From: Deltaproteobacteria bacterium
GTDB taxonomy: Bacteria; Desulfobacterota; GWC2-55-46; UBA9637
Direction: 5' to 3'
DNA length: 64,000 bases
NCBI GenBank assembly: GCA_016219285.1
Contig: JACRNJ010000006.1
Location: forward strand, 4,988-68,987
The translations under genes were made by a program, and so were the position numbers. Below, one piece after another: positions 27,168 through 53,410 of this stretch (its first letter is position 1; every line of letters begins with the position of its first letter). The notes beneath the pieces are model-generated. The model was given only the letters and a program-made list of their open reading frames with translations, was not told the origin of the DNA and searched no databases.

Positions 27168-28328
27168 TTAGGGCAAGGTTTTACGCCATATCATATCAAC
27201 TTTTTCAATCATGCGCTTAAGGTCAAAACTCTCTCTTACAAATCTTCTCCCTGCTTCACCTACCGCAATCCTCATATCCCTGCTTTTTAATAAGAGGCTG
27301 ATGTTTTGTGAAAACTCCTCCGCCGTATCTGCAACAAGGATATCTCGTCCAGGAACGGCCTCTATCCCTTCATTGCCGATGGATGTAGTAACTACAGGGA
27401 GGGAGTGCGCCATGGCCTCTATATTCTTCGCTATGATGCCGCCGCCTCTGAGAATAGGGGAGACAAATATCGTAGCCTTCTGATAGTATGGCGCTATATC
27501 ATCTACATATCCTGTAACAACAATATTCCTGTCATAAGACGACAGATCTTTAATATGCTGAGGGGGATTATTTCCCACCACATAAAATTGAATACCCGGC
27601 ATCCCCTGTTTTACCCGAGGAAGGATATTTTTAAAAAAATAGATTACGGCTTCCTGATTGACATCCCTGTGCATTGCTCCGGCAAAGAGTATGATGTTTT
27701 CTTCTCCGGCACAATGGGGTGGATATTCGGAAGTTTCAACCGCATGTGGTATTACATGAATATTCAGATTAGGGTTAAACGAGAGAAGGATATTTTTATC
27801 CATGCGAGAGCGTGTAAATATCGTGTCAAATTTACCGGCTATGGAGAGTTCTATGCTTTTGCTTATACGCCACCGCAGCCAGTTGATAGTTTTTTGCAAC
27901 ACCCCTTGAGAAGCGCGATACTGTCTTTCAGCAGGCTTTGATATTACATCATGGGCATCCAGGATCATCCTTGCCTTTTTATGCCTCTTTATGAATAATC
28001 CTGCTTCCGTGTGTTCCACCTGCACGATATCAAAATTTCTTTTCCGTATGATTCGGTTTGCCCTGATGGCAAGATTAAGGTAAGAGGCAATAATAAAAAA
28101 AACCCGCAGAGGGTTATCAGCATCCGGGGTCTTAAACTTATAGAGTTCAACCTCTTTACAAAAACCCCCCATTTCCTGAACAAAACCTATCTCGTGCGGC
28201 TCTATTCTGGAAAAAAGATATATCTCATGTTGTGCGTACAATCCCTTTATTATTTCATAAACAGTTTTTCCGCCTGCATGGGGAACCCCAACATAAGGGA
28301 AAAACGGGGTAACAATCAAAACCTTCAC
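27168..28328 (-). CDS. Glycosyltransferase, GT4 (GT-B, family 1-like)
   Basis: 386 aa with GT4 features (MKVLIVTPFFPYVGVPHAGG; C-terminal E-x7-E-like region). Confidence 0.75.
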   Translation of the reverse strand: MKVLIVTPFFPYVGVPHAGGKTVYEIIKGLYAQHEIYLFSRIEPHEIGFVQEMGGFCKEVELYKFKTPDADNPLRVFFIIASYLNLAIRANRIIRKRNFDIVQVEHTEAGLFIKRHKKARMILDAHDVISKPAERQYRASQGVLQKTINWLRWRISKSIELSIAGKFDTIFTRSRMDKNILLSFNPNLNIHVIPHAVETSEYPPHCAGEENIILFAGAMHRDVNQEAVIYFFKNILPRVKQGMPGIQFYVVGNNPPQHIKDLSSYDRNIVVTGYVDDIAPYYQKATIFVSPILRGGGIIAKNIEAMAHSLPVVTTSIGNEGIEAVPGRDILVADTAEEFSQNISLLLKSRDMRIAVGEAGRRFVRESFDLKRMIEKVDMIWRKTLP

Positions 28329-29441
28329 CTACAGCAACCCCTTTACCGCGTTGAATACCATCTCTGCAGTTATCTGTTCCATACAGCTCGGACTAATATC
28401 ACAGGTCTGCTTATAGCAGCATAAGCAGTTGATATCCGCATAAATCTTCCTGCCTCGGCCATACAGGTCTATCTCTGCATGAGATGTCGGGCCGAATAGC
28501 GCCACAACCTTTTTCCTGAGCGCCGTCACTGCATGCAATGCCAGAGTATCGCCGGTAACAAATATATCGGCAAGGTCAACCAGTGAAAAGAACTCTCTGA
28601 TTGTATTTTCACAACCCGTATCAATGAGTGGCCCGCCGTGTTTTTTCTTTAATCTTGCATTTCGCTCTTTTTCCTCCGGGCCGCCGTAAAGCAGTATTCT
28701 GGAGTTTGGAATATTTTTATTCATCAGTTCAATAAGCCTGGAAAATCCCTCCTCTGTCCACTGTTTCTTTTCCCATCTTCTTCCTGCCCCCGTATTCAAA
28801 CCTATCCTCATCTCACCAGACTGAAGAGCGTTTTTTCTTGCAAACTCTTGGGCAAATCTTTTTTCTTTGTCGCTGAGATTCAGTATTATTTCGCGGTTTT
28901 TGGTTTTCAATCCCAGTATGGCAAATACTATTTCCTGGTAGGTTCTGGTATTGGCCTTTTTCATATCATCAAATAAACCCATCTCAAACCATCTTGCCGC
29001 TTCCTTATTCAGAGGATAAACGTATCCCCTTGCATCATAGCCAAAGCCGATTCTTGACCTTGCTTTAGCGCTCTCCGCAATAATTGCGCTTTTCGGGTCC
29101 GCGTCAGGATTTATCACAATATCGTAGCTCTCACTTTGAACCCTTAAGAAAGATTCGGCAGAATAGTCAAGCACGCAATCTACCAGGTCATTATTTTCAA
29201 ACAGGGGAACTGATTCTTTTCGGGTAAACCAGAGGATGTATGAGTCGGGATGTTGTTCCTTGAGTCCGTGCAGTATAGAGGTTGTTCGAAGGACATCTCC
29301 GACAGCATCAAGCTTTATAATAAGGATTCTCTTTTTCACCCTTTGATAAAAACGACATCCCTTGCAGTGAACCCATTTTTCTTTATGCGGCTTGCAGGGA
29401 ATGTTGCCCTTAAAGTATCTGCAATCCTTGTGTATTATCAT
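28329..29441 (-). CDS. Glycosyltransferase family 9 (heptosyltransferase-like) with a Cys-rich N-terminal extension
   Basis: 370 aa with GT9 motifs (ILIIKLDAVGDVLRTT...GDTLALHAVTAL). The N-terminal ~35 aa contain CxnC...CxxC. Confidence 0.7.
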   Translation of the reverse strand: MIIHKDCRYFKGNIPCKPHKEKWVHCKGCRFYQRVKKRILIIKLDAVGDVLRTTSILHGLKEQHPDSYILWFTRKESVPLFENNDLVDCVLDYSAESFLRVQSESYDIVINPDADPKSAIIAESAKARSRIGFGYDARGYVYPLNKEAARWFEMGLFDDMKKANTRTYQEIVFAILGLKTKNREIILNLSDKEKRFAQEFARKNALQSGEMRIGLNTGAGRRWEKKQWTEEGFSRLIELMNKNIPNSRILLYGGPEEKERNARLKKKHGGPLIDTGCENTIREFFSLVDLADIFVTGDTLALHAVTALRKKVVALFGPTSHAEIDLYGRGRKIYADINCLCCYKQTCDISPSCMEQITAEMVFNAVKGLL

Positions 29442-30988
29442 TGGTATCCCTGCGTCAGTTTTTTATAAACAAAACCTATAAAAGGATTTTTCCGGAAGAT
29501 ACCTGTAATGCCCTTTAAACATGCATATGCAGCCCTATACAATAACTTCTTCGCTGCACAAGGGGAGCGGCCTGTGATGAAAAAATCATCTTTCGCCAGG
29601 TGCTTGAGCCTTCCTGTCAGGAGATGTCCAATCCAGAGTTTAAACAGTGTCTTCTTTATGCCAAAATCAATGCCTGATGCAAGAATGTTTTTAAAGAAAT
29701 ACATGGGTCTTGAATAATAAAAAGATTCCATTTGGCTTGCCAGCACAACCAGATCCTTTTCCGGCACCGCGGAAATAGATATAGGATAAGCCCCGAAGTC
29801 TCTGTAACTGTTGAACCTCTCCCAATCGTATTTAATATTTTCTGGCACATACTGATATATAGGACTCCCTGGAAGAGGGGAACAAATAAAAACTGGAGCA
29901 AAGGTCGGATTCACTTCACACATAAGGTTATAGGTGTCTCTTATAGTAGCAACTGTGTCCAGTCTGTGATTAATCATGTTAAAGGCATAGGTCATAATAC
30001 CTGCTCTCTTTGCAAGGTCAAAGGTATTCTTTATTTCCTCATTAGTCATCTTCCTGCTTATATCTTCTCGCACTTTAGCATTTCCTGACTCCAATCCAAA
30101 TGCGATAATATAACAACCACTCTCTTGCATGGCAGAGAGAAGTTCATAATCAACAGTACCTACTTTGCCTAAGCATCGCCAGGGAAATCTTAAACCCCTC
30201 TTTTTAAACTCTTCAAACAGTTCGTAAAGCCATGCCCGCTTAGCCGTAAAAAGCTCATCATGAAACATGACCTCATCATAGCCAAATCTCTCAAACATAT
30301 ATTTGATCTCATCCACCACATTCTTTGGACTTCTCCTCCTGAAGACAGAGCCGTAAACAGCCTTATTGCAATAGGCGCAGCTGAAAGGACAGCCCCGTGA
30401 CGCCGTCAGATTCAATATTTTTTTGCCGACCTCTATCCCTTCTGATGGATATGTGTACTTTTCTATGAGATCGTTGGCAGGAAAAGGTAGAATATCCAGA
30501 TTCTCTATATAAGGTCTCGACCCTGTATGGACAATAGTCCCGTTATTCCGGTAGTAGATGCCCTGAACTTGATCCAGATTCGATCCCTTTTCAATAGCCT
30601 TGATAAGCTCAATAATGGTTACATCCCCTTCTCCGCATACGAGAACATCTGCCTCTGGACAGTCCAACATTGTCCTTTCCGGCAAGGCTGTAGCATGATG
30701 CCCTCCAACTATAATTTTAATATGGGGAAATTCTTCCTTAAGACCTTTTATATACTGCAAGGTTTGAGGTAGACCAAAGGTATAAAGGCTGAAACCGACA
30801 ACATCCGGGGAAAAGTTTTTCATATAATCAATTGAAGGATAGTTAAGTTTATTCTCCTTCGCCCCCTGATCATAGATATCCACCTCATAATTTGCTTTTC
30901 TTAATGAGGCGGCAAGGTAAAGGATGCCAAGAGGCGGGTTCTGATTAAAGTCTATGCCATTGGATTGATTGATAAGGAGTATCTTCAT
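29438..30988 (-). CDS. B12-binding (class B) radical SAM protein
   Basis: N-terminal cobalamin-binding domain followed by a radical SAM core (SRGCPFSCAYC). Confidence 0.8.
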   Translation of the reverse strand: MKILLINQSNGIDFNQNPPLGILYLAASLRKANYEVDIYDQGAKENKLNYPSIDYMKNFSPDVVGFSLYTFGLPQTLQYIKGLKEEFPHIKIIVGGHHATALPERTMLDCPEADVLVCGEGDVTIIELIKAIEKGSNLDQVQGIYYRNNGTIVHTGSRPYIENLDILPFPANDLIEKYTYPSEGIEVGKKILNLTASRGCPFSCAYCNKAVYGSVFRRRSPKNVVDEIKYMFERFGYDEVMFHDELFTAKRAWLYELFEEFKKRGLRFPWRCLGKVGTVDYELLSAMQESGCYIIAFGLESGNAKVREDISRKMTNEEIKNTFDLAKRAGIMTYAFNMINHRLDTVATIRDTYNLMCEVNPTFAPVFICSPLPGSPIYQYVPENIKYDWERFNSYRDFGAYPISISAVPEKDLVVLASQMESFYYSRPMYFFKNILASGIDFGIKKTLFKLWIGHLLTGRLKHLAKDDFFITGRSPCAAKKLLYRAAYACLKGITGIFRKNPFIGFVYKKLTQGYQ

Positions 30989-31095
30989 TTTACAGATCTT
31001 CCCTTTCTAAATTTTACACCAATCTTTTCTGGCAACCCCATAAGAACCTTCTCGGAATTCCAAAGCAGCCATATTTTTTCATTAAGCCATAGCAT

Positions 31096-32826
31096 TTAAT
31101 TTTTGGGAACAAGTTCATAACAATGGTTTAGTTTCTCTATTTTTTCTTTGGTCTCCGACTCTTTTTCTATGGACTCTTTATAATACGGTATCGCCTTCCC
31201 GTATTCACCGATATGATAATAATAATCGGCAATCAATTCACTGTGATTTAAGAGTCTCGGATAAGGATATACACAGGGTATTTTAAGCCTCTGTACCTCC
31301 GACACAAACCTCTCAAACCGTTCCAGCCTTTTCAAGTAATTGTTTTTGCCATCGCTGGATTCCCAGTAGGAAGCGCCTTTTGAGATATCTATCCTGTAAT
31401 TTTCTGGCTCCGCATATGCAGCAGTCCCCGGATGTATAAGACAGAATGCGGAACTCGGGTTTATGGCATATATATATTTTGCGTTACGTCTTATGAAGTT
31501 GATGTTTTCTTCCGCATCATCATCGGTTTCACCAGGCAGGCCAAACATAAAATTCAAGCCGCACCCGACCCCTGCCCTGTAAGAATCCCTTACAAGTCTG
31601 TCTATATCGGATGCTGCGGTAAAAATCTTTCCCACCTTTTTTAAAAGCGGTTTGGAAGTTGATTCAAGCCCATAGGCCAGGGACACACACCCGGCTTTCT
31701 TAAACTTTACCAGAAGCTCATAGGTCATTTCTTTTCTGACCACCGCCTGCCCGCCCCAGAACACATTCAGCCTGTCTCTTATAATATTGTCGCAGAGACG
31801 TTCGATCTCAGTAATATTGCCGTTAATGAGGCTGTCATGAAACTCAAAGTACGAAATATGCGGGTGCTTTTCAATCTGATAACGCATCTCGTCATACAGG
31901 GAATTTCCGCTACGAAAGCGATATCCACCCCAGAACGCTCGCTCATTACAAAAAACGCATTTATTTATACAGCCGCGGCACGATTCTATGGGACATTTAA
32001 AAGGCTCTCTGTATCTGAAAAAATTAAAATCGGTAAAGTCCGGAAATGGTAAGGTATCCAAATTCTTTATGAATGCCCTCGGCGCCACAGGAACTATAGC
32101 ATTGCCACATTTAAACGTAGCGCCCTTACATTCTACAATATCTTTTCCATCATTGACGAGTTTGACAATCTCAAGAAACGTTTCCTCGCCCTCGCCTTCC
32201 ACGACGAAATCAATACTATCGTTTTCTTTGATAATGCTTCTGCCGGTTATCCGCCCGCTTGCGCCGGCGCCCCCAAAAACCACGGTAAGAGCCGGGTTTC
32301 TCTTTTTTATCTCCCTCGCCATATAGGCGCTCATCCGATAGGAGCTGTCAAAAATAGTAAACCCGATTATACGCGCCCCGCTATTGGCTATAAGTTCTAT
32401 ATATTGTTCCAGCGCCTCTTTATTGTCGTTGATAAACGCATCCAGTGTCGAAGGGTTGTCCCAAAACCAGAATACATTATTAGACCACCCGTCGGGGTAT
32501 TGGTGTTTGTTTTTGTTATACATCTCCACATTAATATCAACCGGCATTACCTTTATACCATTTGCCCTTAGAAATGCCGTAAGGCAGGCTATTGCAAGCG
32601 GCGGGGTATCAACACCCCAGCCGGGGGCCTGCACCAGCACCACATGAGGGCTTTTGTATCTAATGGAGGAAAGATGTTTAAGATAATCGCCGGCAGGCCT
32701 TTTATAAAGAAGGCGCGTAACAACAGCTCTTACCGGCACCATCCAGCGCCTTAAAAAAGGAAATACCCCTGCAACCCAAAGTCCGGTGGTAATAACAATC
32801 CTCGCTATGTAATCAAGTAACTTCAT
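31096..32826 (-). CDS. B12-binding radical SAM protein with an N-terminal hydrophobic segment and a TPR-like C-terminus
   Basis: 576 aa with a B12-binding-like domain and a Cys cluster (CPIESCRGCINKCVFCNE). Confidence 0.7.
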   Translation of the reverse strand: MKLLDYIARIVITTGLWVAGVFPFLRRWMVPVRAVVTRLLYKRPAGDYLKHLSSIRYKSPHVVLVQAPGWGVDTPPLAIACLTAFLRANGIKVMPVDINVEMYNKNKHQYPDGWSNNVFWFWDNPSTLDAFINDNKEALEQYIELIANSGARIIGFTIFDSSYRMSAYMAREIKKRNPALTVVFGGAGASGRITGRSIIKENDSIDFVVEGEGEETFLEIVKLVNDGKDIVECKGATFKCGNAIVPVAPRAFIKNLDTLPFPDFTDFNFFRYREPFKCPIESCRGCINKCVFCNERAFWGGYRFRSGNSLYDEMRYQIEKHPHISYFEFHDSLINGNITEIERLCDNIIRDRLNVFWGGQAVVRKEMTYELLVKFKKAGCVSLAYGLESTSKPLLKKVGKIFTAASDIDRLVRDSYRAGVGCGLNFMFGLPGETDDDAEENINFIRRNAKYIYAINPSSAFCLIHPGTAAYAEPENYRIDISKGASYWESSDGKNNYLKRLERFERFVSEVQRLKIPCVYPYPRLLNHSELIADYYYHIGEYGKAIPYYKESIEKESETKEKIEKLNHCYELVPKN

Positions 32827-33947
32827 TGTTTTTTTAAAGACTTTAATATCCTCTTTGCCCTCAAGTTCGCATCAAGCAACTTAAAATTACAGTTCAACAA
32901 TTTACATGCCTTCCGGCAATCCCTTATCAGTTCCCTCTGTATCTTCGCTTTATCAGAGCTCCATATACTCTCGGGCACATCATCCTTTATGCTGCCTATT
33001 GGCTCCATGATTGAACATATTCTCACATTGCCAAACGGGTCTAAGAAAAAATTCTTCGGGCCTATATTACAGGGAAGATTTACAAATTCCGAATCATTGT
33101 GGTTTTTAAGATACACCGATATAAGGCTTAAATGTTTAAAAGAGTTATTGATAGGGTAACCCTTTTCCTTCATAGATATAATCTCATCAAATATGCCGGT
33201 TATATCAAGTGTTTCCCTGCCTGGTTTTTTATATAATTTGCCTTCAGGAAATTCTTTATGTCCGCCGGTCGCATCAAATACCGGAAATGTCCCTGCCTCC
33301 ATGAGCGGCTGAAAATTAATCCCATCAAGCCCCTCTGATACAACAAATTCCACTATCTTTGGAAGTTCTCTGATGTTTTCTTCCATGATAGTAGCACTTA
33401 TAGTAAGCCTCATCTTGCCCCTTTTGCGTAAATTCGTTATTGCCCGCATAACATCATCAAAACTTGCCTCACTGCCTCTGGTGGCATTGTGGACGTTGGG
33501 GTTCAAGCTATTAAGCGAAAGGCTCAGCGAATCGAGACCTGATGAAATTATCTTCTTCGCAAATATTTCGTCTATCAACGAGCCATTTGACACAGCGGAA
33601 GTGATTATGCCATGCGCTGATGCAAACCTTACGATGTCAACAAATCCATCCTTTAAAAAAGGCTCTCCACCTCCAAATGAAAGACTAAAAGTCCCGAGCC
33701 ATTTTTTTAGTTTTACTATAACGGCATTCCACTCATCCACGGTCAGCTCGTTTTCATCAGGCGCAGATGTCCACCTGAAACATGTTGGGCATTTGAGGTT
33801 GCATCTATAGGTTATCTCGCAGAGTATATCCACAGGTTTTAAAGGCGAGCGATTGGGTCTATGAGCGCCAAGCAAATCGTCAAATGTATACTTTACGAGG
33901 TATTTAAGCCCCAATGCTATTCTTTGCCTTGCCCTGCTGTTATACAT
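32823..33947 (-). CDS. Radical SAM protein with a SPASM-like C-terminal Cys cluster
   Basis: CEITYRCNLKCPTCF (CxxxCxxC) near the N-terminus and C-terminal Cys motifs (CSIMEP...CRKACKLLNC). Confidence 0.7.
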   Translation of the reverse strand: MYNSRARQRIALGLKYLVKYTFDDLLGAHRPNRSPLKPVDILCEITYRCNLKCPTCFRWTSAPDENELTVDEWNAVIVKLKKWLGTFSLSFGGGEPFLKDGFVDIVRFASAHGIITSAVSNGSLIDEIFAKKIISSGLDSLSLSLNSLNPNVHNATRGSEASFDDVMRAITNLRKRGKMRLTISATIMEENIRELPKIVEFVVSEGLDGINFQPLMEAGTFPVFDATGGHKEFPEGKLYKKPGRETLDITGIFDEIISMKEKGYPINNSFKHLSLISVYLKNHNDSEFVNLPCNIGPKNFFLDPFGNVRICSIMEPIGSIKDDVPESIWSSDKAKIQRELIRDCRKACKLLNCNFKLLDANLRAKRILKSLKKQ

Positions 33948-34033: not shown

Positions 34034-35116
34034 TTATTTATTATTGTTGTAAAATAACTTTTTGATATATTTAGGCGATAGTTTGTATTGTTTATGAAGA
34101 AGTTTTTTTGTATGAAAGACTTTGATTCGCTTCCGGATTTCAAAAAGGGTCGAGGCCGCCCATTTGCAAAAAACAGAATATTCTCCCAACCTTGCAATAA
34201 ATAATAATATTGAAAGCAGAGAAGATGAACCGAATTCTTGCCTGTAAAGCATAGCAGCTTCAACAGCTTTTACCGGTTCTTTTTTAAACAAACGTTCTCC
34301 CATATAACCCAATAAGTATCTTTTCATATTAGTCTCCCACGCATGATAAATACGTTTGTTTGTTTCTTCAGATAAATCTTTATCTCTTATAAAATATTCC
34401 ATGACAATCCTCCAACCGCACAACACATCATTATATAAATTCATATTTGTTGAATAAGAGTTGGGATGAAATACGAACACACCGCAAGGTTTTTTAAATA
34501 TATAAAAAGGATATGATTTAGCAATTTGCATTTCAAAATGAGCATCTAAATGTGCTTTGACATCATAGTTTGGCGTCCACATTTTTAAAACCTTGCTTCT
34601 GAACAATATAGTAGTCCATGTAGGATGGCCTTTCTCCCACATATATAAAAGTCCTTCAGGCGGATAAATTATTCCGTCTTGCCAATCTGTTAAAGTCAAG
34701 GCAATTATCTCAGCGTTTTCATTGGCAACAATTGTTGAGCCTGCGCAAAAGACAGCCTCAGGGTAATTTTCCATGTTAGTCATGGCATCCTCATAAAAAT
34801 TTGGCAGAAGGAAATCGTCGTCAGAAAGTATTGAAAAGAAAGGGGTTTGAACCTGTGACATCCCATACTCCAAATTAGCCAATCCGCCGATATTTTCAGA
34901 ATGGCAAAAATACTTGACTCTGTTATCCTGCTTTGCCAGGCTTAATACAACTTCTTTCGTTCCGTCGCCTGAGGCATTATCGTAAACACATGCATGGAGA
35001 TATGGATGGGTTTGGTTTAATACGCTCAGGATGGCGCGTCTAAGCATTTTGGGCCTTTGGTACGTAGTAATAATCGTAGTTATCTGCGGCAGGTTAGCTT
35101 CCATGATTTTCTTCAT
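34034..35116 (-). CDS. Glycosyltransferase family 2
   Basis: GT-A motifs (ITTIITTYQRPKMLRRAILSVLNQT...YDNASGDGT...SDDD). The start is taken at MKKIMEANLP; the track ORF extends upstream in frame into the flippase gene. Confidence 0.75.
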   Translation of the reverse strand: MKKIMEANLPQITTIITTYQRPKMLRRAILSVLNQTHPYLHACVYDNASGDGTKEVVLSLAKQDNRVKYFCHSENIGGLANLEYGMSQVQTPFFSILSDDDFLLPNFYEDAMTNMENYPEAVFCAGSTIVANENAEIIALTLTDWQDGIIYPPEGLLYMWEKGHPTWTTILFRSKVLKMWTPNYDVKAHLDAHFEMQIAKSYPFYIFKKPCGVFVFHPNSYSTNMNLYNDVLCGWRIVMEYFIRDKDLSEETNKRIYHAWETNMKRYLLGYMGERLFKKEPVKAVEAAMLYRQEFGSSSLLSILLFIARLGEYSVFCKWAASTLFEIRKRIKVFHTKKLLHKQYKLSPKYIKKLFYNNNK

Positions 35117-36621: not shown

Positions 36622-36626
36622 TCAAA
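36550..36626. repeat. Direct repeat copy 1 (~76 bp): the 5' end of wzx including its start codon
   Basis: It is near-identical (3-4 mismatches) to 37515-37591. Confidence 0.85.
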
Positions 36627-37064: not shown

Positions 37065-37378
37065 AACTTTACTCCTGTCTGAATGGCCATTTTCAGAAAA
37101 GGAGAATCTATTCCCTCTCTTACAATGATATCTATCTTTTGTTCACCTAATGCCTTATACATGTTTATCTTTATAAATCGCCTCTGAATCGGTAATATCC
37201 TCTTGGAAATTACGAGGATATCCAAATCGCCTCCCTTTTTATTCAAATCCGCCCTTGAGCCGAAAATATAGATTCCGGCATCCTTGTCATATTCATATAC
37301 AGCGTCCTTTATCTTTTTAATCTCGTCTGGTTTTAACCTGACAACCTGTGGCGATATGGAAGTATTATTTCCCATCAC
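37061..37378 (-). CDS. Minimal nucleotidyltransferase (MNT, pol-beta superfamily), putative antitoxin
   Basis: GSRAD...GGDLDILV motif. It has a 4-nt overlap with the HEPN gene. Confidence 0.75.
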   Translation of the reverse strand: MMGNNTSISPQVVRLKPDEIKKIKDAVYEYDKDAGIYIFGSRADLNKKGGDLDILVISKRILPIQRRFIKINMYKALGEQKIDIIVREGIDSPFLKMAIQTGVKL

Positions 37379-38408: not shown

Positions 38409-38543
38409 AATTTTTATATATTTTCACATGCTTACAACAAGCTTAAGGCGATTGAAATATAAAGAGCCAATTGTTTTTATAGCACTTGCTCCTCTCGTTT
38501 GCGTTTTATGTAATTAACAAAAACCTAAACTCACTCACATTTT

Positions 38544-45352: not shown

Positions 45353-46285
45353 TTACCTTTCCTTGTGTTTTTTCCACCAATCTATAGTCCGTTCCAATCC
45401 TTGATCCAAGTCATAGCTTGGCATCCAACCTACTTCGCCGGTTAAACGTTCCACATCTGCAACTAACAATTTTGGCTCATTTATAGAAGAAGGATTGTCT
45501 CCAAACCGCACCAATTCTCTTTTATTCAATTTGTCAGCAATTGTATTAACAACGTCTTTCAGAGTTATTGGGTTACCTGAAGCAATATTAACCGGACCCG
45601 TAACACCGCTCTCTAAAAGAGACACGAATGCGGAGGCCACATCCTGAACATGGAGAAAGTCACGAATCAGATTGCCGTGTAAACAATGTGCAACCTGGTT
45701 TTTCAACAAAGAACAAATAATAGATGCTACTAACTTCTCGGGATATTCATAAGGGCCATACACAAAAAACACCCTTCCCCACGCGTAACTAAGGCCTATT
45801 TGATTTGCAAACTGTCTTGTCATTTCATGCAGACTGTTTTTACATGTGCCATAAAGGGTAGACGGCCGAAGGGGCGTAACTTTCTCGGAGCAATATCCGT
45901 ATGACCAATCATATTCGGCGGAAGTGCCCGCAATCACGGCGCGACGGCCGCCGTGTTCAACAAAATTCGCCATAACTTCCAAACTTGCCTGAACCCACCT
46001 AAAATTTTCAATAGACATCCAATACTTTCCCGGCACAGCGTACCAGGCAAAGTGAAGAAGATGCGTTGGTTTTATCTTGGCAAACAGTTGCTTCTGCTCC
46101 AAAGGATTCAAAAGGTCGCACCGGTGCCAGAACAAATTTTCCTTTCGAGCAAAGACCGGCTCTTTGGCATGGGAAACAGCATGAACTTCATACCCCATGT
46201 CTATGAGAAATGGAATTGCATGTCTTCCTATGAAACCGGACGCGCCGGTTAATAAAACTTTTTTGCCACTAAAGTAGTTGCTCAT
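45353..46285 (-). CDS. NAD(P)-dependent sugar epimerase/reductase (SDR family)
   Basis: TGASGFIGRH Rossmann motif and YxxxK-containing SDR core. Confidence 0.7.
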   Translation of the reverse strand: MSNYFSGKKVLLTGASGFIGRHAIPFLIDMGYEVHAVSHAKEPVFARKENLFWHRCDLLNPLEQKQLFAKIKPTHLLHFAWYAVPGKYWMSIENFRWVQASLEVMANFVEHGGRRAVIAGTSAEYDWSYGYCSEKVTPLRPSTLYGTCKNSLHEMTRQFANQIGLSYAWGRVFFVYGPYEYPEKLVASIICSLLKNQVAHCLHGNLIRDFLHVQDVASAFVSLLESGVTGPVNIASGNPITLKDVVNTIADKLNKRELVRFGDNPSSINEPKLLVADVERLTGEVGWMPSYDLDQGLERTIDWWKKHKER

Positions 46286-46311
46286 ATAATCCTGTAACGT
46301 CTCGTAAAATA

Positions 46312-47538
46312 TTACAGCACCTGCACGTCAGGCACTGCAATGACGAACTTGCCTCCCCACTCTCTTATGAAAGACATCTGCTCCATTACCTCTTCTTTAA
46401 TATTCCATGGAAGGATAAAGACATATTCGGGTTTGGTCTGTCTTATTTTATCAGGATGCTCAATGGGTATCCTGCTCCCTGGCAGAAAGAGACCCTGTTT
46501 TGCAGGATTTCTATCCACTACATATGGAATCAAATCGCATTTCACACCGGCAAAATTTAGCAAAGTGTTGCCTTTCGCTGCCGCACCATAACCTATAACT
46601 TGCTTACCGGAACTCCATGCCTGGATAAGAAACACAAGAAAGTCGTTTTTAATTTGGTTGGCTTTTGTCTGGAACACTTGATAGTAATCTGCTGAACTTA
46701 TACCGGCATCTGCTTCATCAAATAACACCCCTGCTACACGGTTGTGTATCGGATTCTTACCCGTAGCCTTTCGCTGTGCATATACACGAAGACTGCCGCC
46801 GTGGGTCGGAATTTCCTCGACATCAAAGACCTCAATACCATTAGCCCTTAAAATACTGTCAACAGCAGTAAGGGACAAATAGGAATAATGCTCGTGGTAG
46901 ATGGTGTCAAACTGGCTCTCTGCAACCATCCGCAAGAGATGCGGGAATTCAAAGGTTGCTACCCCGCGCGGTTTGAGCAGACGGGCGAAGCCCGAAACAA
47001 AGCCGTTGATATCCGGCACATGGGCAAGGACATTGTTTGCAATAATCAAGTCTGCCTGCCTGCCATCCTTCGCAAGACGTTCTGCGAGAGAAACACCAAA
47101 GAACTCCTCAATGATGTATATTCCTTTGGCTCTTGCCGCAACCGCAGTGCTTGCCGTCGGCTCAACACCGTAACAGGGGATGCCGCGTTCTTTGACATAT
47201 TGGAGCAGGTATCCGTCATTGGCAGCGATTTCAACCACCATGCTGTTTCGATTAAGATTGAAGCGTTCCGCTATCTTGGCAACATATTCTTTCGCATGCG
47301 CGAGCCATGTTGTTGAATAAGAGCTGAAATACGCATAGTCGGGGGCAAAAAGCTCTTCAGCGCCTGCATAATCCTCTGTTTGCGCAAGCCAGCAGTTGGT
47401 GCAGACAAGCACGCGCAAAGGGAACCATTTTTCCAGCGCCTTAAGTTGTTCTAGGGAAAGATATGCGTTTGAAGGCGGGGCAGTTCCAAGGTCTATGAAT
47501 CGCAGAGTTAACTCTGCTTTGCAGTGACGGCACTTCAT
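46312..47538 (-). CDS. NDP-hexose C-methyltransferase (TylCIII/EvaC-like; zinc-ribbon + Methyltransf_13/14)
   Basis: N-terminal CRHCKAELTL...C zinc-binding motif, a class I MTase core, and a C-terminal C-methyltransferase domain. Confidence 0.7.
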   Translation of the reverse strand: MKCRHCKAELTLRFIDLGTAPPSNAYLSLEQLKALEKWFPLRVLVCTNCWLAQTEDYAGAEELFAPDYAYFSSYSTTWLAHAKEYVAKIAERFNLNRNSMVVEIAANDGYLLQYVKERGIPCYGVEPTASTAVAARAKGIYIIEEFFGVSLAERLAKDGRQADLIIANNVLAHVPDINGFVSGFARLLKPRGVATFEFPHLLRMVAESQFDTIYHEHYSYLSLTAVDSILRANGIEVFDVEEIPTHGGSLRVYAQRKATGKNPIHNRVAGVLFDEADAGISSADYYQVFQTKANQIKNDFLVFLIQAWSSGKQVIGYGAAAKGNTLLNFAGVKCDLIPYVVDRNPAKQGLFLPGSRIPIEHPDKIRQTKPEYVFILPWNIKEEVMEQMSFIREWGGKFVIAVPDVQVL

Positions 47539-48104
47539 ACCGTTACCCCGTTGAATTGCATGTCAATAAAAGGATGGGCGCGGTCCCTGTCGGAAAGTTC
47601 AGTTATGGGAAGAGGCCATGCTATCCCGACACGCGGGTCTTGCACATTGAGAGCGCCTTCAGCGCTTGGGACATATCGCTCCGTATGCAGATAGAGCAGT
47701 TCGCAATCATCCGTCATGGTTTGAAAGCCGTGCGCAAATCCTTCGGGGATCAACAGACTTTTCCGATTTTCCGCGGAAAGTATTTCGGCATGCCATTTGA
47801 GAAAAGTAGGCGAATTTTTCCTGATGTCAACGGCGACATCATACGCTTCGCCCCGGATACAGGACACGACTTTTGTTTCCGAATGCGGGGGATATTGAAA
47901 ATGCAGGCCTCGCACCACCCCCTTTTTTGTCGTGAGGGTATGATTTATTTGCGCTATTGGTTTTTGCATGCCAAACTTTTTATATTCATCGGCGCAGTAA
48001 AACCTCGCGAAAAACCCCCTGACATCTCTTATCGGCTTACGTTGTACGACAACGAGGCCTTGCAAGCGTGTTAGTGTGCAATCAAAACGAGACGCCTTTG
48101 TCAT
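47535..48104 (-). CDS. NDP-4-keto-6-deoxyhexose 3,5-epimerase (RmlC-like cupin)
   Basis: 189 aa with the RmlC motifs (RGLHFQ...IRGEAYDVAVDIR...PEGFAHGF). Confidence 0.75.
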   Translation of the reverse strand: MTKASRFDCTLTRLQGLVVVQRKPIRDVRGFFARFYCADEYKKFGMQKPIAQINHTLTTKKGVVRGLHFQYPPHSETKVVSCIRGEAYDVAVDIRKNSPTFLKWHAEILSAENRKSLLIPEGFAHGFQTMTDDCELLYLHTERYVPSAEGALNVQDPRVGIAWPLPITELSDRDRAHPFIDMQFNGVTV

Positions 48105-49159
48105 ACGCTCTCCTCGTATGATTCAATTTGCTTAAGCGAGAATCGATGCATGTCGTCGGTTTTTCCATACCATGCCTTGTACCATGAAATCGTTTCCTTA
48201 ACAGCCCTGTCAATCGGCCAACTGGGGCGCCAGTCGAGATTGGTTCGCGCTTTAGTGATGTCAAGCCGCAGTATTCCTGCTTCGTGCAGCTTGTCCGATT
48301 TCTCTTGCGATACAACGGCGCCGCCGCCCCAGTAATCCGCCGCCTTTTGCGCTATTTCTCCTACCGTGGCATCGCCCGCCGCATCAGGGCCGAAATTCCA
48401 CGAATCTGAAAACGCTGCCGCCTCTGAGCCGAGCAGTTTTTCCGCAAGCAAAATGTAACCGCGTAAAGGTTCCAGCACATGCTGCCAGGGGCGTATCGCG
48501 TGCGGATACCGCAGTTCAACCTGCCGTTTTCCCGTAAAAGCGCGAATGCAATCGGGCAGCAATCTGTCCTCTGCCCAATCGCCGCCTCCGATGACATTGC
48601 CGGCGCGGGCAGACGCAACGGCAACATTGGCATCGGAAAAAAAACTGCTGCGGTAGGAAGCGGTTACAATTTCCGCGCACGCCTTGCTGGCGCTATAAGG
48701 GTCGTACCCGCCAAGCGCTTCGGTTTCACGGTAAGGATATACCCATCCTTTGTTTTCATAGCATTTGTCCGTAGTGACAACAACAACGGCGCGCACGCTT
48801 CGGGTGTTTCTCGCGGCTTCAAGAAGATTTACCGTGCCAAGTATATTCGTGTTTAATGTCTCAACCGGTTTTTTGTATGAAGGCCGAACAAGAGACTGCG
48901 CAGCAAGATGAAACACAATTTCAGGCCGTGCGTCGGCAAATGCGGCAGACAAGTCATCGAGATTTGTTACGTTTCCTTTTACGGTTCTTACAACCTTTTC
49001 AAGTCCGCACACTTCGAATAGGCTTGGTTTGGTGGGAGGCTCAAGCGAATATCCCGTAACATCAGCGCCCAAGCGCTTTAACCACATACTAAGCCATCCT
49101 CCCTTGAAACCGGTATGGCCTGTGATAAATACTTTTTTCCCTTTGAAGAAATCGTGCAT
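48101..49159 (-). CDS. rfbG: CDP-glucose 4,6-dehydratase
   Basis: 352 aa with the characteristic N-terminus (FKGKKVFITGHTGFKGGWLSMWL) and SDR core. Confidence 0.8.
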   Translation of the reverse strand: MHDFFKGKKVFITGHTGFKGGWLSMWLKRLGADVTGYSLEPPTKPSLFEVCGLEKVVRTVKGNVTNLDDLSAAFADARPEIVFHLAAQSLVRPSYKKPVETLNTNILGTVNLLEAARNTRSVRAVVVVTTDKCYENKGWVYPYRETEALGGYDPYSASKACAEIVTASYRSSFFSDANVAVASARAGNVIGGGDWAEDRLLPDCIRAFTGKRQVELRYPHAIRPWQHVLEPLRGYILLAEKLLGSEAAAFSDSWNFGPDAAGDATVGEIAQKAADYWGGGAVVSQEKSDKLHEAGILRLDITKARTNLDWRPSWPIDRAVKETISWYKAWYGKTDDMHRFSLKQIESYEESV

Positions 49160-49181
49160 ATGCTTAATTCACCTTATCCGC

Positions 49182-49958
49182 CTACCAGACCTTCCATTTT
49201 GCGGAGTTATTGTTCCACACATTGTTTAAGTAGTCCGTATCTCTGATTGTATCCATACACGCCCAAAACCCATTGTGTTTATAGACCATCAACTGCCCTT
49301 CTTCGGCAATCTTCTCAAGAGGGCCTATTTCAAGATCGCAAGAATCGTCTACTGTAAAGTAATCGAAAATCTCTCTGTTAAAGACAAAAAAACCGCCATT
49401 GACAAATCCTCTTCCGGTCTCCGGCTTTTCTTTCAACGTTTTGACGCGATTATCATCTATATTAAGTTCTCCAAAGCGCGACGCGGGGTTTATTCCTGTT
49501 AAGGTCGCAATCTTACCGTGTTTTTTATGAAAATCCAAAAGGTCGTTTATGTTGACATCGCAAAGCCCGTCTCCATAAGTAACCATAAAAATGTCTCCGT
49601 CAATATATGGCTCAAGTTTTTTAAGTCTTGCACCCTTAAGGGTCCTCTCTCCCGTGTCCACCATTGTAATTTGCCAGCCAGCCTCTTCGTGGCATTCATG
49701 TATGCGGAGTTCTCTCGGGTGACCCAGTTTGATACTAACAGCGCTATTCATAAGTTCGTAATGATAAAAATAATCTTTTATCATTTCTCCTTTGTATCCC
49801 AAGGCTAAGACAAAGTCATTATAGCCGTAATGCTCGTAACTTTTCATGATATGCCAAAGTATGGGCCGATGACCGATATGAACCATGGGCTTTGGACGGA
49901 ATTCCGTTTCTTCACGAAGACGAGCCCCTAATCCGCCGCAGAGAATAACTATTTTCAT
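49182..49958 (-). CDS. rfbF: Glucose-1-phosphate cytidylyltransferase
   Basis: 258 aa; the sequence MKIVILCGGLGARLREETEFRPKPMVHIGHRPILWHIM is a near-canonical RfbF start. Confidence 0.85.
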   Translation of the reverse strand: MKIVILCGGLGARLREETEFRPKPMVHIGHRPILWHIMKSYEHYGYNDFVLALGYKGEMIKDYFYHYELMNSAVSIKLGHPRELRIHECHEEAGWQITMVDTGERTLKGARLKKLEPYIDGDIFMVTYGDGLCDVNINDLLDFHKKHGKIATLTGINPASRFGELNIDDNRVKTLKEKPETGRGFVNGGFFVFNREIFDYFTVDDSCDLEIGPLEKIAEEGQLMVYKHNGFWACMDTIRDTDYLNNVWNNNSAKWKVW

Positions 49959-50347
49959 ATCACCCCTCCTTAATTTTCACTTCGTCAGGCATTCTCTGAA
50001 GAACAAAATTCATAACGACTTCTGCCAACTTGATCGCTTCCTCAACATCGGATGGATCCGGTTCCAACACATATAAGCCATTGCTGGATATCATGGATTT
50101 TAGCTTCATTCATAAAGCACCTTGCTTTTTTAAGGACGACCGTTGCCAATGATGCCGCCACATTTTTACTCCTCTCAACCTCATCGTGTATCTGCACAAT
50201 AACATCCACTGGCGTTCCTATACCGCGAAGACACCTATGTATCTGTCTGGCATGGCGATAAGAAGGCTCTTTGGAATGAGGCGCTATGATAAACAGATCA
50301 ATGTCGCTTGATTTCATAGGCTCACCACAGTCATGGGAGCCAGGGGG
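49959..50347 (-). pseudogene. Degraded minimal nucleotidyltransferase (MNT) gene: an in-frame stop immediately upstream of the conserved GS...DIDLFII core and a frameshifted C-terminus
   Basis: The upstream in-frame sequence reads *PPGSHDCGEPMKSSDIDLFII, with the stop cutting the family N-terminus. The C-terminal segment EAIKLAEVVMNFVLQRMPDE is encoded in another frame downstream of the ORF stop. Confidence 0.5.
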
Positions 50348-50434: not shown

Positions 50435-51448
50435 TCATGCCAATTTAAAATATTTTTTATACCACTCCACAAACTTCTTAATCCCTTCCTCAATCGACGT
50501 GGCCGGTTTAAATCCCACATCATTTATCAAATCATCCACATCAGCATAAGTGGCAGGGACATCTCCTGGCTGTATGGGCAGCAGGTTTTTCTCTGCCTTT
50601 TTACCTATGGCATCCTCCAGAACCTCTATAAACCTCATAAGTTCAACCGGGTTGTTGTTGCCTATATTGTATAATTTATATGGCGCATAGCTTGTGGCCG
50701 AATCAGGATTATCTCCGCTCCAGGCTGGATTGGGCTTGGGTATTTTATCCATTACCCTGACCACCCCTTCTATAATATCATCTATGTAAGTAAAATCCCT
50801 TTTCATCTTTCCGTAATTGAATACATCTATTGTCTTTCCTTGCAATATGGCCTTTGTGAAGAGAAATAACGCCATGTCAGGCCTGCCCCAGGGTCCGTAA
50901 ACTGTAAAAAATCTTAGGCCTGTGCATGGGATATTGTAGAGGCTTGCGTATGTATGCGCCATAAGCTCATTTGCCTTTTTTGTGGCAGCATAAAGAGATA
51001 CAGGATGGTCGACATTGTGATGAACGGAAAATGGCATGTTTGTATTAGCCCCGTAAACAGAGCTTGATGAGGCAAAGACAAGGTGTTTGACTTTATTATG
51101 TCTGCATCCTTCGAGGATATTTAAGAATCCGTTTATATTGCTCTCAATGTAGGCATAAGGATTTATCAGAGAATATCTCACCCCTGCCTGCGCTGCCAGA
51201 TTAACCGCTGCATCAAAAGATTCTTCGGAAAAAAGGGAGGCTATGGATTTTCTATCTGCTATATCCATTTTGATGAATTTAAAATTCTTCATCCCATCAA
51301 TCTGTTTTAACCTGTCTTTTTTGAGATTGACATCATAGTAATCATTGAGGTTGTCAATCCCGAATACTTTATCTCCGCGATTAAGCAGTCTTTTGCAGAG
51401 GTGAAAACCTATAAAACCTGCCGCGCCGGTAACTAGTATCTTTTTCAT
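50435..51448 (-). CDS. NAD-dependent nucleotide-sugar epimerase (UDP-glucuronate 4-epimerase / Cap1J-like)
   Basis: 337 aa, extended SDR ([10 protein letters not shown]...YxxxK), paired with the upstream nucleotide-sugar dehydrogenase. Confidence 0.8.
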
Positions 51449-52779
51449 GCCCTATATACCTTTCTGCTGTTTATTTTATTTTTTCTGAATGCATTTCTTG
51501 TGTCCAGGATGCACTGAGCGTGTCTTTCTATGAAGGCATAGTCATACGATGTGTGGTCTGTTGCCAGAAGCGCCATATCGGCGCCTTTCAATGCCTCTTC
51601 GGTAAGTTCGACGGATTTCATATTTATATCAGGATAGTGGCGATGTCCCTCGCATACAGGGACACAGGGGTCATTGTATGAAACATACGCTCCAAGTTTT
51701 TTCAAAAGCTGGATGATTTTTAACGAGGGCGACTCTCTCTGGTCGTCCACATCTTTTTTATAAGCTACCCCCAGAACAATTATCTTGGCGCCTTTTAGAG
51801 ATTTTCCCATTTCATTTAAGAGCCGCCCTGCCTTTTCTACAACATAATAGGGCATGGAGGTGTTTATCTCTCCTGCAAGCTCAATAAATCTGGTGGAAAA
51901 GTCGTATTCTCGGGCCTTCCATGTGAGATAAAATGGGTCTATGGGGATACAGTGTCCGCCAAGGCCGGGGCCTGGATAGAATGCCTCAAAGCCAAAAGGT
52001 TTTGTCTTGGCAGCTTCTATTACCTCCCATATATCAATTCCCATTTTGTCAAAAAGTATCTTGAGCTCATTAACAAGGGCTATATTTACCGCCCTGTAGA
52101 TATTTTCAAGCAATTTTGCAGCCTCTGCAGCCTTTGTGGAAGATACAGGCACTGTCTTCACAACTACGCAGTCGTATAGCGCTTTGGCAGCTTTGAGACA
52201 ATTCCCGGTATAACCGCCAACAACCTTTGGAATCGTATGCGTTGTAAAATCTTTTCTGACAGGGTCTTCTCTCTCAGGCGAAAAGGCCAGGTAAAAATCC
52301 TCTCCTGCCTTTAATCCTGTCTCTTCCAGTATCATCTTCATGTCTTGGTCTGTTGTGCCTGGATAAGTGGTGGATTCAAGAACAACTAGCTGCCATTTAC
52401 GGAGATATTTTGCAATAGTTCTGGTTGTATCAAACACATAGGATAAATCAGGCTCTCTATGCTCATTGAGCGGCGTGGGAACACAGATGATTATGCAATC
52501 CATATCTTTAAGATTAGAAAAAATTGTTGTTGCATTGAATCTCCCATCTTTAATAAAGTCTTTTATACTTTCAGATGGAATATGTTTTATATAGCTTTCG
52601 CCGTTATTAAGCATAGCCACTTTTTGCTGGTCAATGTCGAAACCTGTGACATTAAAACCAGCCCTGTGAAATTCTTTGATAAGCGGAAGGCCCACATAAC
52701 CAAGACCTATAATGCCAACAGTTGCATTTTTGTCTTTAACTTTTTTTAATAAGAACTCAACAGCATTTTCTTTATTCAT
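51445..52779 (-). CDS. Nucleotide-sugar dehydrogenase (UDP-glucose/GDP-mannose dehydrogenase family)
   Basis: [12 protein letters not shown] Rossmann motif and a catalytic Cys region (GGHCIPID). The likely start is MNKENAVEF. Confidence 0.8.
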
Positions 52780-52795
52780 GTTGCCTCCTTGTGAA

Positions 52796-53410
52796 TTATA
52801 CCTTGCCTCTTGACAGTATCTTTTCAAACAGCACCCCTGCCTCTACCAGTTTGATATACAATTCTTCCTCTTTTGAAAAACTCGTGATAATTACACGGTC
52901 ATAGTCTATGATGTTTAAATCTTCTATAGGTCTGATACTTTGGCCTAAAAAACTTTTGCTTTCGTTTTCAGTATCCACCACTGCAATAAGTTCTATCTCA
53001 AACTCCTGCAGTGTAATATAGGCAATCTCCGCCACCTCATCAGAGCCGCAAAACACAACTCTTTTAATATTATCTTTACGCAGATTATAAAATAATTTTT
53101 GAAAATCGTGCCCTGCAACTCTGTAAAGGCTTGTAAAGTTTTGCAGGTGGTGGTAGGTCATACGGGTTTTTTCTATAAAACCCTGTGGGGTAAGGTAATA
53201 CTTATATCGCTTTTTGGGTATGGCGGCTACGGTTATATAGCCCTTTGAGGCAAGATTTTTGATGTATGAATTGATAAGCCCCAGCGCAATACCCAACCTC
53301 TTGCTTAAATCCCGCTGAGTTATTTCATTATTTCTTGATATTTCGTCTAAAAGAAGAAGGGAGTGATAATCATCAGACGACTGTGTGGTACGGCTGTCTT
53401 TGATGTTCAT
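52796..53410 (-). CDS. Putative transcriptional regulator (winged-helix N-terminus plus Rossmann/CoA-binding-like C-terminus; Rex-like architecture)
   Basis: An N-terminal wHTH-like segment (ITQRDLSKRLGIALGLINSYIKNLASKGYI) and a C-terminal nucleotide-binding-like segment (VVFCGSDEVAEIAYI). It lies at the head of the glycan locus. Confidence 0.45.
   Translation of the reverse strand: MNIKDSRTTQSSDDYHSLLLLDEISRNNEITQRDLSKRLGIALGLINSYIKNLASKGYITVAAIPKKRYKYYLTPQGFIEKTRMTYHHLQNFTSLYRVAGHDFQKLFYNLRKDNIKRVVFCGSDEVAEIAYITLQEFEIELIAVVDTENESKSFLGQSIRPIEDLNIIDYDRVIITSFSKEEELYIKLVEAGVLFEKILSRGKV

Follow-up and report, generated by a model that had tools for sequence, protein, structure and literature searches.

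What do six radical S-adenosylmethionine (rSAM) enzymes do among the sugar genes of a single bacterial locus? This question is raised by a 64,000-nucleotide stretch of the 85.9-kb contig JACRNJ010000006.1 (positions 4,988 to 68,987; hereafter the window, in whose numbering all coordinates are given), which belongs to a metagenome-assembled genome (MAG) labelled Deltaproteobacteria bacterium and encodes proteins MBI5326866-MBI5326897. The open reading frame (ORF) listing contains an unbroken, co-directional run of 23 ORFs on the minus strand (27168-53437); rpsB-tsf-pyrH-frr (23724-26699) lies at its downstream end and a divergent TldD/PmbA gene (53621-55012) at its upstream end. We consider it likely that this run is a mosaic surface-glycan locus, that its six rSAM proteins are glycan-pathway enzymes acting on nucleotide-sugar or lipid-linked intermediates, and that one part of it, here called module B, is horizontally mobile.

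Gene identities were obtained from Pfam and NCBIfam profile searches with family cut-offs. Each gene class named in an initial annotation of the locus was recovered in this way, including four glycosyltransferases (GT4, GT9, GT2 and GT4, with Pfam matches at each), a Wzx flippase, a cytidine diphosphate (CDP)-6-deoxyhexose branch, a sugar dehydrogenase/epimerase pair, CmcI-like and FkbM methyltransferases, and four B12-binding class B rSAM proteins. The genes are co-directional as had been described, but the count of 22 had to be raised to 23, a HepT-like/MNT pair and a MarR-type regulator having been unlisted. All six rSAM proteins contain the CxxxCxxC motif and score above 29.5 bits for PF04055, which places them in the rSAM superfamily. 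In four of them both PF04055 and the B12-binding domain PF02310 (cut-off, 32.1 bits) were above cut-off: B12_1 (29438-30988; PF02310 82.5 and PF04055 67.8 bits), B12_2 (31096-32826; 53.6 and 50.7), B12_3 (38544-40166; 57.6 and 77.7; gene callers set its start about 11 codons later) and B12_4 (40163-41773; 55.5 and 81.9). These are class B by domain content, and the B12 Rossmann domain of all four has the G-phi-S/T...GG signature without DxHxxG. The other two (32823-33947 and 44327-45352) had been called SPASM-type. They are rSAM proteins with Cys-rich C-termini, but neither contains the seven-Cys SPASM motif: the first has five Cys in a partial SPASM/twitch C-terminus (PF04055, 91.5 bits; SPASM, 19.9, below 21.5), and the second, with PF04055 and PF13186, has the four Cys of a twitch domain and is the only one of the two above the Pfam SPASM cut-off (49.8 bits vs 21.5).

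Such a density of rSAM genes is hard to attribute to chance. They account for 6 of the 23 locus ORFs and for none of the 33 other annotated ORFs of the window (Fisher p=0.003), and the binomial probability of at least 6 in 23 was 9e-8 to 5e-5, assuming that rSAM genes make up 1-3% of all genes. Pairwise identity among the four B12-domain proteins was only 22-28%, and therefore they are not recent duplicates. GC content per gene ranged from 0.36 to 0.52 across the locus, a mosaic composition, and the genes of module B swing over the same range. The locus is a mosaic of module A (27168-33947) and module B (37611-49958). An Rfam search of the locus found no riboswitch, neither cobalamin nor SAM.

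By their gene neighbourhoods, the six rSAM enzymes belong with the glycan genes. Relatives of all six families (37-90% identity) were found in sugar-gene neighbourhoods in other genomes. Module A, which consists of the partial-SPASM rSAM, B12_2, B12_1, a Cys-rich GT9 (28329-29441; PF01075, 84.5 bits) and GT4a (27168-28328; PF13692/PF00534/PF13439), with which the locus ends, is found again in Nitrospirota and further MAGs. The B12_1 orthologue group (63-80% identity) is always beside GT9/GT4 genes, and in three unrelated MAGs its members are flanked by GT4, GT9, GT2, MurJ/Wzx-type flippases and methyltransferases. In a Nitrospirae MAG (L004) the order rSAM-B12_1-GT9-GT4 is identical to that of the window, with a 51% orthologue of the partial-SPASM rSAM adjoining the B12_1 orthologue in the same position. 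GT9 orthologues (54%) also adjoin B12_1 orthologues, and GT4a homologues (37-47%) occur beside orthologues of both B12_1 and B12_2. Orthologues of B12_2, a protein with a transmembrane-like N-terminal helix (residues 7-25) and a TPR-like C-terminus, are 48-60% identical to it; one of 59% (L094) is located in a glycan locus with three B12-domain rSAM genes, GT4, GT2, DegT, FkbM and ManC, and a GT4a homologue follows directly. The B12_4 family is small (about 20 full-length clusters at 50% identity), and its relatives lie inside the same FkbM-B12_4-B12_3-CmcI sub-cassette (90% identity, L093) and in a NeuB/cytidine monophosphate (CMP)-sugar/DegT/GT2 sugar locus (43%, L176).

The rSAM genes could alternatively be passengers from a RiPP (ribosomally made, post-translationally modified peptide), lipid or cofactor pathway that were inserted among sugar genes. 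The top NCBIfam matches do include RiPP methylases (TIGR03975 for B12_2, ApyD for B12_1), BchE and a lipid B12-rSAM family, and in one locus (L095) a B12_2 orthologue has an rSAM/SPASM gene as its sole partner and no glycosyltransferases nearby. However, all of these matches are far below cut-offs, no rSAM protein exceeded the threshold of any curated lipid, cofactor or RiPP family, the locus has no lipid or tetrapyrrole genes, and synteny with glycosyltransferase and sugar-nucleotide genes is kept across phyla for all six families. A RiPP reading was also rejected on the ground that the intergenic gaps are short and contain no convincing precursor-peptide ORF. Because the relatives sit among sugar genes and no curated family cut-off was reached, the passenger explanation is very improbable, and we retain the assignment of the six enzymes to the glycan pathway.

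Several structural peculiarities of these families were recorded. Some relatives of B12_2 are fusions with a SPASM rSAM (about 960 aa), and some of B12_1 carry a fused class I methyltransferase (about 740 aa); proteins P0311, P0319, P0044 and P0049 cover the B12_2/B12_1 fusions. Distant relatives of B12_4 (P0403, P0405, P0421, P0437 and P0450) are giant proteins (2,000-7,548 aa) in which rSAM-like stretches occur at three or four separate places. The GT9 of the window and its orthologues (L005 7533-8642; L006 11580-12710) share an N-terminal four-Cys motif, DCRYF..PC.PHK..VHC..C, and a C-terminal motif, CLCCY..TCD..P.CM; a second GT9 in L006 is without the N-terminal motif. The Cys-motif GT9 may be a metal- or Fe-S-binding subfamily tied to the rSAM module.

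Module B contains a CDP-6-deoxyhexose branch, which had been proposed initially and is borne out by the profile scores. RfbF, a glucose-1-phosphate cytidylyltransferase (49182-49958; TIGR02623, 328 bits vs 300), RfbG, a CDP-glucose 4,6-dehydratase (48101-49159; TIGR02622, 495 vs 278), and an RmlC-like 3,5- (or 5-) epimerase of the 4-keto-6-deoxy intermediate (47535-48104; PF00908, 205 bits; TIGR01221, 171 vs 156) exceed NCBIfam cut-offs. The equivalog thresholds reached by the first two assign them the formation of CDP-glucose and of CDP-4-keto-6-deoxyglucose. Two further members were assigned by Pfam: a TylCIII-type nucleoside diphosphate-hexose C-methyltransferase (46312-47538; PF08421, 76 bits; PF08484, 209 bits), with the layout of that type (Methyltransf_13 Zn-ribbon, class I methyltransferase and Methyltransf_14 C-terminal domain), and a short-chain dehydrogenase/reductase (SDR), the presumed 4-ketoreductase of the branch (45353-46285; PF01370, 134 bits). 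The twitch rSAM gene (44327-45352), the core of the module, comes next, followed by a GT4-family glycosyltransferase of 429 aa (GT4b, 43041-44330; PF00534/PF13692), an FkbM-family methyltransferase (41875-43071; TIGR01444, 54.8 bits vs 37.7), B12_4, B12_3, and a CmcI/rhamnosyl O-methyltransferase-like methyltransferase (37611-38408; PF04989, 317 bits).

We found that this cassette is widely distributed. When one genome of each GTDB species was scanned by pattern, which gives a lower bound, the twitch cassette was present in at least 199 species loci from many bacterial phyla and archaea. The bacterial hosts included Dehalococcoidales, Planctomycetota, Ignavibacteria, Bacteroidota, Geobacteraceae, several candidate phyla radiation (CPR) lineages, Spirochaetia, Lachnospiraceae, Gastranaerophilales, Prochlorococcus (Cyanobacteria), Pelagibacterales and Campylobacterota, and the archaeal hosts included Methanoperedenaceae and Promethearchaeota. 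All window proteins were then compared by tblastn with 80 retained cassette loci, 40 of which were "full" (at least 8 kb on both sides). The recurrent order was RfbF-RfbG-RmlC-(C-methyltransferase)-SDR-twitch-(FkbM)-(B12_3)-GT4b-(CmcI). A GT4b homologue was present in every full locus (40/40; 67/80 overall), followed by RmlC (32/40), RfbF (26/40), SDR (25/40), RfbG and FkbM (23/40 each), CmcI (15/40), the C-methyltransferase (14/40) and B12_3 (8/40). Among all 80 loci, the SDR was immediately upstream of the twitch gene in 30, FkbM homologues were present in 42, and CmcI homologues (37-75% identity) in 27; many loci hold two to four rSAM genes. RfbG was unrecognisable within 10 kb in about 40% of the full loci, and in a Wallbacteria locus (L011 9201-11011) the twitch gene directly follows rfbF.

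The members of the cassette have diverged unevenly. Across the 80 loci the twitch protein is 56-82% identical to that of the window, its neighbours only 25-75% (typically 25-65%). This suggests that the twitch enzyme acts on one unchanging substrate and that the acceptors of the glycosyltransferase vary. A search with the twitch protein retrieved 2946 homologues at E<1e-10; full-length identity is 72-94% among the best 120, which represent many phyla. Searches of 5,426 E. coli genomes gave no match and those of phages no real one; the gene can therefore not be linked to a known O-antigen structure. B12_3 orthologues (34-61% identity) occur in about 14 cassette loci, and an unbiased metagenome scan seeded by B12_3 orthologues alone (25 loci of at least 9 kb, at least 35% identity) landed in the same cassette, with GT4b in 18 of 25, twitch in 15, FkbM in 14, RfbF in 13 and CmcI in 12. 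B12_3 is therefore a genuine accessory member.

In a Methanoperedenaceae MAG the twitch, GT4b, FkbM and CmcI proteins are 70-77% identical to those of the window, and such values between a bacterium and an archaeon indicate inter-domain transfer. The edges of module B are marked by an MNT/HepT-like pair downstream and a possible, weakly matching MNT-like remnant upstream, in a 477-bp gap. The pair comprises an MNT nucleotidyltransferase (37061-37378; PF01909, 34 bits vs 21; MntA, 23.9, below 60) and a HepT-like protein (36612-37064; HepT, 21.3, below 23.5), and is a putative type VII toxin-antitoxin (36612-37378) whose HepT-like partner scores below the family cut-off. The candidate remnant, a 91-aa ORF (50042-50317), matches PF01909 weakly (17.3 bits, below 21). 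A pair homologous to the MNT/HepT genes (38-48% identity) also lies beside the cassette in the Wallbacteria MAG (L011 783-1504). When L093 was compared with window positions 37611-45352, FkbM-B12_4-B12_3-CmcI were 84-90% identical and the adjacent twitch and GT4b 71-76%, a difference that indicates recombination inside the cassette. On another contig, recovered from ENA, from JGI and from a GTDB genome and represented by L009, L010 and L013 (positions 1-823 and 3630-15726), the cassette lies immediately downstream of genes for an STT3/AglB-type oligosaccharyltransferase and a PemK toxin, an adjacency that hints at its use in N-linked protein glycosylation. An archaeal origin of L009/L010 was unsupported, as the same contig is binned as Dehalococcoidales (L013).

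What reaction could the twitch enzyme catalyse? Its four C-terminal Cys (245, 263, 308 and 311) are invariant in 25 family members. In a HMMER alignment, residues 258-323 align without gaps with residues 182-247 of BtrN, Cys on Cys (263/308/311 on 187/232/235), and the same offset puts Cys245 on BtrN Cys169. These BtrN residues are reportedly (Goldman et al., 2013) the ligands of the auxiliary cluster. BtrN, the 2-deoxy-scyllo-inosamine dehydrogenase of the butirosin pathway, was the best PDB match by sequence and the top Foldseek match (4m7t, E 9e-11), followed by anSME, MoaA, DesII, viperin and BlsE. With the single-cluster BtrN-type Cys spacing and BtrN as the top fold match, the protein belongs to the twitch subfamily. 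BtrN works as a dehydrogenase on a sugar/cyclitol; HygY, itself a twitch rSAM protein, is an epimerase in which a dehydrogenase activity is latent; and in the rSAM sugar epimerase NeoN a Cys serves as hydrogen donor (PMC10991966). The characterised relatives of the twitch protein oxidise or epimerise sugars and do not methylate them. BtrN and HygY resemble the window enzyme in their one auxiliary cluster and its identical Cys spacing (C-x17-C-x44-C-x2-C), and they take hydrogen from a carbinol carbon of a sugar or cyclitol. They act, however, in aminoglycoside clusters, whereas the window enzyme occurs in primary cell-surface glycan loci with a presumed CDP-sugar substrate; identity is also only 17-18%, and the window enzyme is about 70 residues longer than BtrN and has three extra Cys (111, 179 and 217) that are invariant in its family, any of which could be a hydrogen donor by analogy with NeoN. 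Because of its fold, Cys pattern and gene context, we infer a function on a sugar carbinol: the enzyme would remove a hydrogen at an unactivated carbinol carbon of the CDP-6-deoxyhexose, and the sugar would then be epimerised or oxidised. The key twitch enzyme is thus probably an epimerase or a dehydrogenase.

The same core was found in a pathogen. A tblastn search against plasmids identified a twitch orthologue of 65.7% identity, BHWA1_02678, on plasmid pBHWA1 (36 kb; NC_012226.1) of Brachyspira hyodysenteriae WA1. This plasmid contains seven rSAM genes, five of which are tandem twitch paralogues, and beside the paralogues are a GT4b homologue, an SDR, rfbC, another rSAM and rfbF. The four-gene block rSAM-GT-SDR-rfbC (BHWA1_02678-02681) correlates with virulence, and a role in lipooligosaccharide (LOS) synthesis or glycosylation was proposed for it without biochemical assignment (La et al., PMC4267127). 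This block is the core of the module B cassette. Both are multi-rSAM glycan loci with the arrangement rfbF ... rfbC-SDR-(GT)-twitch rSAM, with identities of 40% for RmlC, 32% for SDR, 27% for GT4b and 46% for RfbF. In contrast to the window, pBHWA1 is plasmid-borne and has five tandem twitch paralogues, no B12-domain rSAM, no TylCIII-type C-methyltransferase and, in the sub-cluster, no RfbG. We also observed there (L096 18925-20832) that an rSAM gene stands between rfbF and rfbC, the sub-cluster being devoid of a CDP-glucose 4,6-dehydratase.

Known CDP-linked sugars help to place the branch. CDP-cillose and CDP-cereose of Bacillus cereus are 3-C-methyl-6-deoxyhexoses made from a four-gene operon, and CDP-vinelose of Azotobacter carries 6-deoxy-3-C-methyl-2-O-methyl-L-talose, a structure that fits the window's set of RfbF, RfbG, epimerase, C-methyltransferase, SDR and O-methyltransferase genes. 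The cillose and cereose pathways are recorded as known CDP-linked pathways (PMC7725333). The window shares with all three the logic of a cytidylyltransferase, a CDP-glucose 4,6-dehydratase, a SAM-dependent C-methyltransferase and a C4-reductase, and adds an RmlC-type epimerase, the twitch rSAM, up to two B12-domain rSAM enzymes and two O-methyltransferases. With these extra enzymes, the final sugar should differ from cillose, cereose and vinelose.

The class B enzymes raise the question of whether they methylate, as the initial annotation had implied. Their relation to known class B enzymes was judged by NCBIfam hidden Markov model scores and PDB comparisons. The curated families compared included HpnJ, BchE, PhpK/Sden_1168, HpnR, RiPP C-methylases, BzaD and AprD4. 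The best class B scores were all sub-threshold (ApyD 182/750, BchE 171/481, HpnJ 168/578, TIGR03975 143/282 and Sden_1168 142/575); HpnJ and Sden_1168 were among the top matches for B12_1 and B12_3, and HpnJ also for B12_2. GenK, GntE, GenD1, Fms7 and MoeK5 are class B methylases whose substrates are sugars or lipid-linked saccharides; GenK, GenD1 and Fms7 modify sugar carbons in glycosides, and the substrate of MoeK5 is a lipid-linked saccharide (PMC9204698; see also PMC4340712 and PMC4039129). The first of these papers also places Fom3, MoeK5 and HpnJ in one cluster and describes SD1168 as functionally uncharacterised. GenK, GenD1, Fms7 and MoeK5 have the same B12-binding domain and rSAM core as the window proteins, a likeness of domain architecture only, and they serve antibiotic pathways, whereas the window enzymes would serve a cell-surface glycan. 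From the domain class alone, C-methylation by the B12-domain enzymes is plausible, and the class I methyltransferases fused to B12_1 relatives and adjacent to its orthologues lean towards methyl-transfer chemistry.

On the other hand, the enzymes might act on the glycan with a different chemistry, such as AprD4-type dehydration/deoxygenation, HpnJ- or OxsB-type ring contraction, or C-C bond formation. The AlphaFold2 (AF2) model of B12_1 (pLDDT 92.9) had AprD4 with bound paromamine as its best fold (TM-score 0.67/0.75, E 4e-23), and then superposed on MgmA, TsrM, OxsB, TokK and CysS. AprD4 was also the best PDB sequence match for B12_1, B12_3 and B12_4, the matches of B12_2, B12_3 and B12_4 being weak and of the same kind as those of B12_1; HpnJ appeared among the top NCBIfam matches of three of the four proteins, and the class is functionally diverse (PMC9204698). 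AprD4, which performs C3'-deoxygenation in apramycin biosynthesis, resembles B12_1 in fold and in having a sugar-ring substrate, but identity is only 18-19% and AprD4 needs the reductase AprD3, whereas no such partner adjoins B12_1 in module A and the relatives of B12_1 associate with methyltransferases, by adjacency or fusion. Moreover, PF02310 remains above cut-off in all four proteins, and the AprD4 and HpnJ matches are far below family thresholds. We judge a non-methylating chemistry to be rather unlikely but a live rival, far more so than the passenger explanation, and C-methylation to be a plausible, putative assignment.

What kind of glycan is made? The remaining genes of the locus give a partial answer. 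At its head is a MarR-type winged-helix regulator (52796-53437; PF13412/PF12802; TIGR04176 MarR_EPS, 62.6 bits, below 88), whose start codon is uncertain. It is followed by the dehydrogenase/epimerase pair of the initial annotation: a nucleotide-sugar dehydrogenase (51445-52827) with three UDPG_MGDP_dh domains, which exceeds the TIGR03026 cut-off (433 vs 190), reaches no equivalog cut-off and resembles uridine diphosphate (UDP)-ManNAc, UDP-GlcNAc and UDP-Glc 6-dehydrogenases, and a NAD-dependent SDR epimerase (50435-51448; PF01370, 196 bits; TviC and GalE models below cut-offs), which is probably a uronate or N-acetylhexosaminuronate (HexNAcA) 4-epimerase partnering it. Between the modules are a Wzx/MOP-family flippase (35113-36621; PF01943/PF13440) with 11 transmembrane-like segments in a hydropathy scan, and a GT2 glycosyltransferase (34034-35116; PF00535, 83.5 bits; a 360-aa form as called in public assemblies). 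No initiating phosphoglycosyltransferase, Wzy, chain-length regulator, ligase or oligosaccharyltransferase was found in the 64-kb window, of which all ORFs down to 100-120 aa were covered. So the product may be not a polymerised O-antigen, capsule or extracellular polysaccharide (EPS) but a short glycan on protein (S-layer, pilin or flagellin), a lipooligosaccharide or a glycolipid. Such a short product would agree with the presence of Wzx without those partners, with the typical action of GT9 members on the lipid A-core, with the oligosaccharyltransferase beside the cassette in L009/L013, with the occurrence of the cassette in archaea and with the discussion of the Brachyspira block in terms of LOS synthesis or glycosylation (PMC4267127). 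Nevertheless, the missing genes may sit elsewhere in the genome, a MarR_EPS-like regulator, albeit sub-threshold, heads the locus, and GT4a resembles PEP-CTERM/EPS-associated glycosyltransferases below cut-off (TIGR03087, 163 bits, below 317). We regard the short-glycan alternative as a serious one, though with less than even probability; the product may be either a polymer or a short glycan.

Several results weigh against the likely reading of the locus as a glycan pathway with rSAM tailoring, and they should be taken together. None of the six rSAM proteins reached the cut-off of a curated NCBIfam family, whether lipid, cofactor, RiPP or antibiotic, and their sequence matches to solved structures are weak. 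About one third of the cassette loci have no recognisable RfbF or RfbG within 10 kb, so that the CDP-sugar substrate is uncertain. The AF2 model of the twitch protein is only moderate (pLDDT 64.6, pTM 0.71). The closest fold to B12_1, AprD4, is a non-methylating sugar 1,2-diol dehydratase. To these must be added the solitary B12_2 pair of L095 and the glycan-assembly functions not found in the window.

Gene identity, synteny and fold comparison lead us to infer the following pathway. RfbF and RfbG, identified by family cut-offs, supply CDP-4-keto-6-deoxyglucose, which the RmlC-type epimerase, the TylCIII-type C-methyltransferase and the SDR would convert to a CDP-6-deoxy-3-C-methyl-hexose. The twitch rSAM would then abstract hydrogen from an unactivated carbinol carbon of this CDP-sugar, which would be epimerised or oxidised, and the obligate partner GT4b would transfer the product. 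FkbM and CmcI may O-methylate it, and B12_3 and B12_4 would add lineage-variable tailoring, most likely methylcobalamin-dependent C-methylation. Module A would build and tailor another part of the same glycan, a UDP-uronic-acid-type sugar would come from the dehydrogenase/epimerase pair, and Wzx would flip the finished lipid-linked unit.

Features outside the locus were also noted. A complete Wadjet (JetABCD) anti-plasmid system is encoded on the minus strand (16017-22545; GC about 0.34), with DUF3375/JetA, DUF4194-MksE/JetB, an SbcC-like JetC (1031 aa) and JetD. It adjoins tRNA-Asp and tRNA-Val (22873-23134), and given its low GC content and this tRNA adjacency it looks like an inserted defence island. 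MoeA is divided between two adjacent plus-strand ORFs (MoeA_N, 878-1330; MoCF_biosynth and MoeA_C, 1366-2151); the gene may truly be split, or a frameshift or an error of assembly may be the cause. Between housekeeping genes, the stretch 10836-14329 contains an HTH-only ORF of 424 aa (possibly a transposase), tRNA-Met (12337-12412), an RNase H/RVT_3 protein (13206-13814) and the RNase P RNA (13864-14329).

The Wzx-type locus with a CDP-C-methyl-sugar branch is of a known kind; the radical tailoring appears undescribed. In antibiotics (gentamicin, butirosin, hygromycin, apramycin and moenomycin) sugars are known to be modified by radical SAM chemistry, which is not established for ordinary cell-surface glycans; our literature search found no paper that assigns class B or twitch rSAM enzymes a part in making such glycans. 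The initial suggestion of a non-standard, perhaps undescribed chemistry was thus upheld as regards its novelty, but multi-rSAM glycan loci turned out to be recurrent and not unique, as the seven rSAM genes of pBHWA1 illustrate. The most valuable lead is the twitch rSAM/GT4 pair. We propose tentatively, as a possibility held with less than even confidence, that this pair represents an undescribed radical epimerisation or oxidation of a CDP-6-deoxyhexose that yields a new monosaccharide, that the cassette has passed by horizontal gene transfer among many bacterial phyla and into archaea, that class B enzymes C-methylate the glycan further, and that the reaction underlies the Brachyspira virulence block. 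The conservation of the twitch protein (56-82%) points to one defined substrate and makes it a good candidate for reconstitution, while the B12-domain enzymes of the locus would extend class B rSAM chemistry to primary glycans. Since a twitch orthologue belongs to the four-gene plasmid block used as a virulence marker for swine dysentery, its reaction could explain a pathogen phenotype and add a sugar. Our results suggest that anaerobes, CPR bacteria, marine oligotrophs and archaea widely use rSAM sugar chemistry in their surface glycans.

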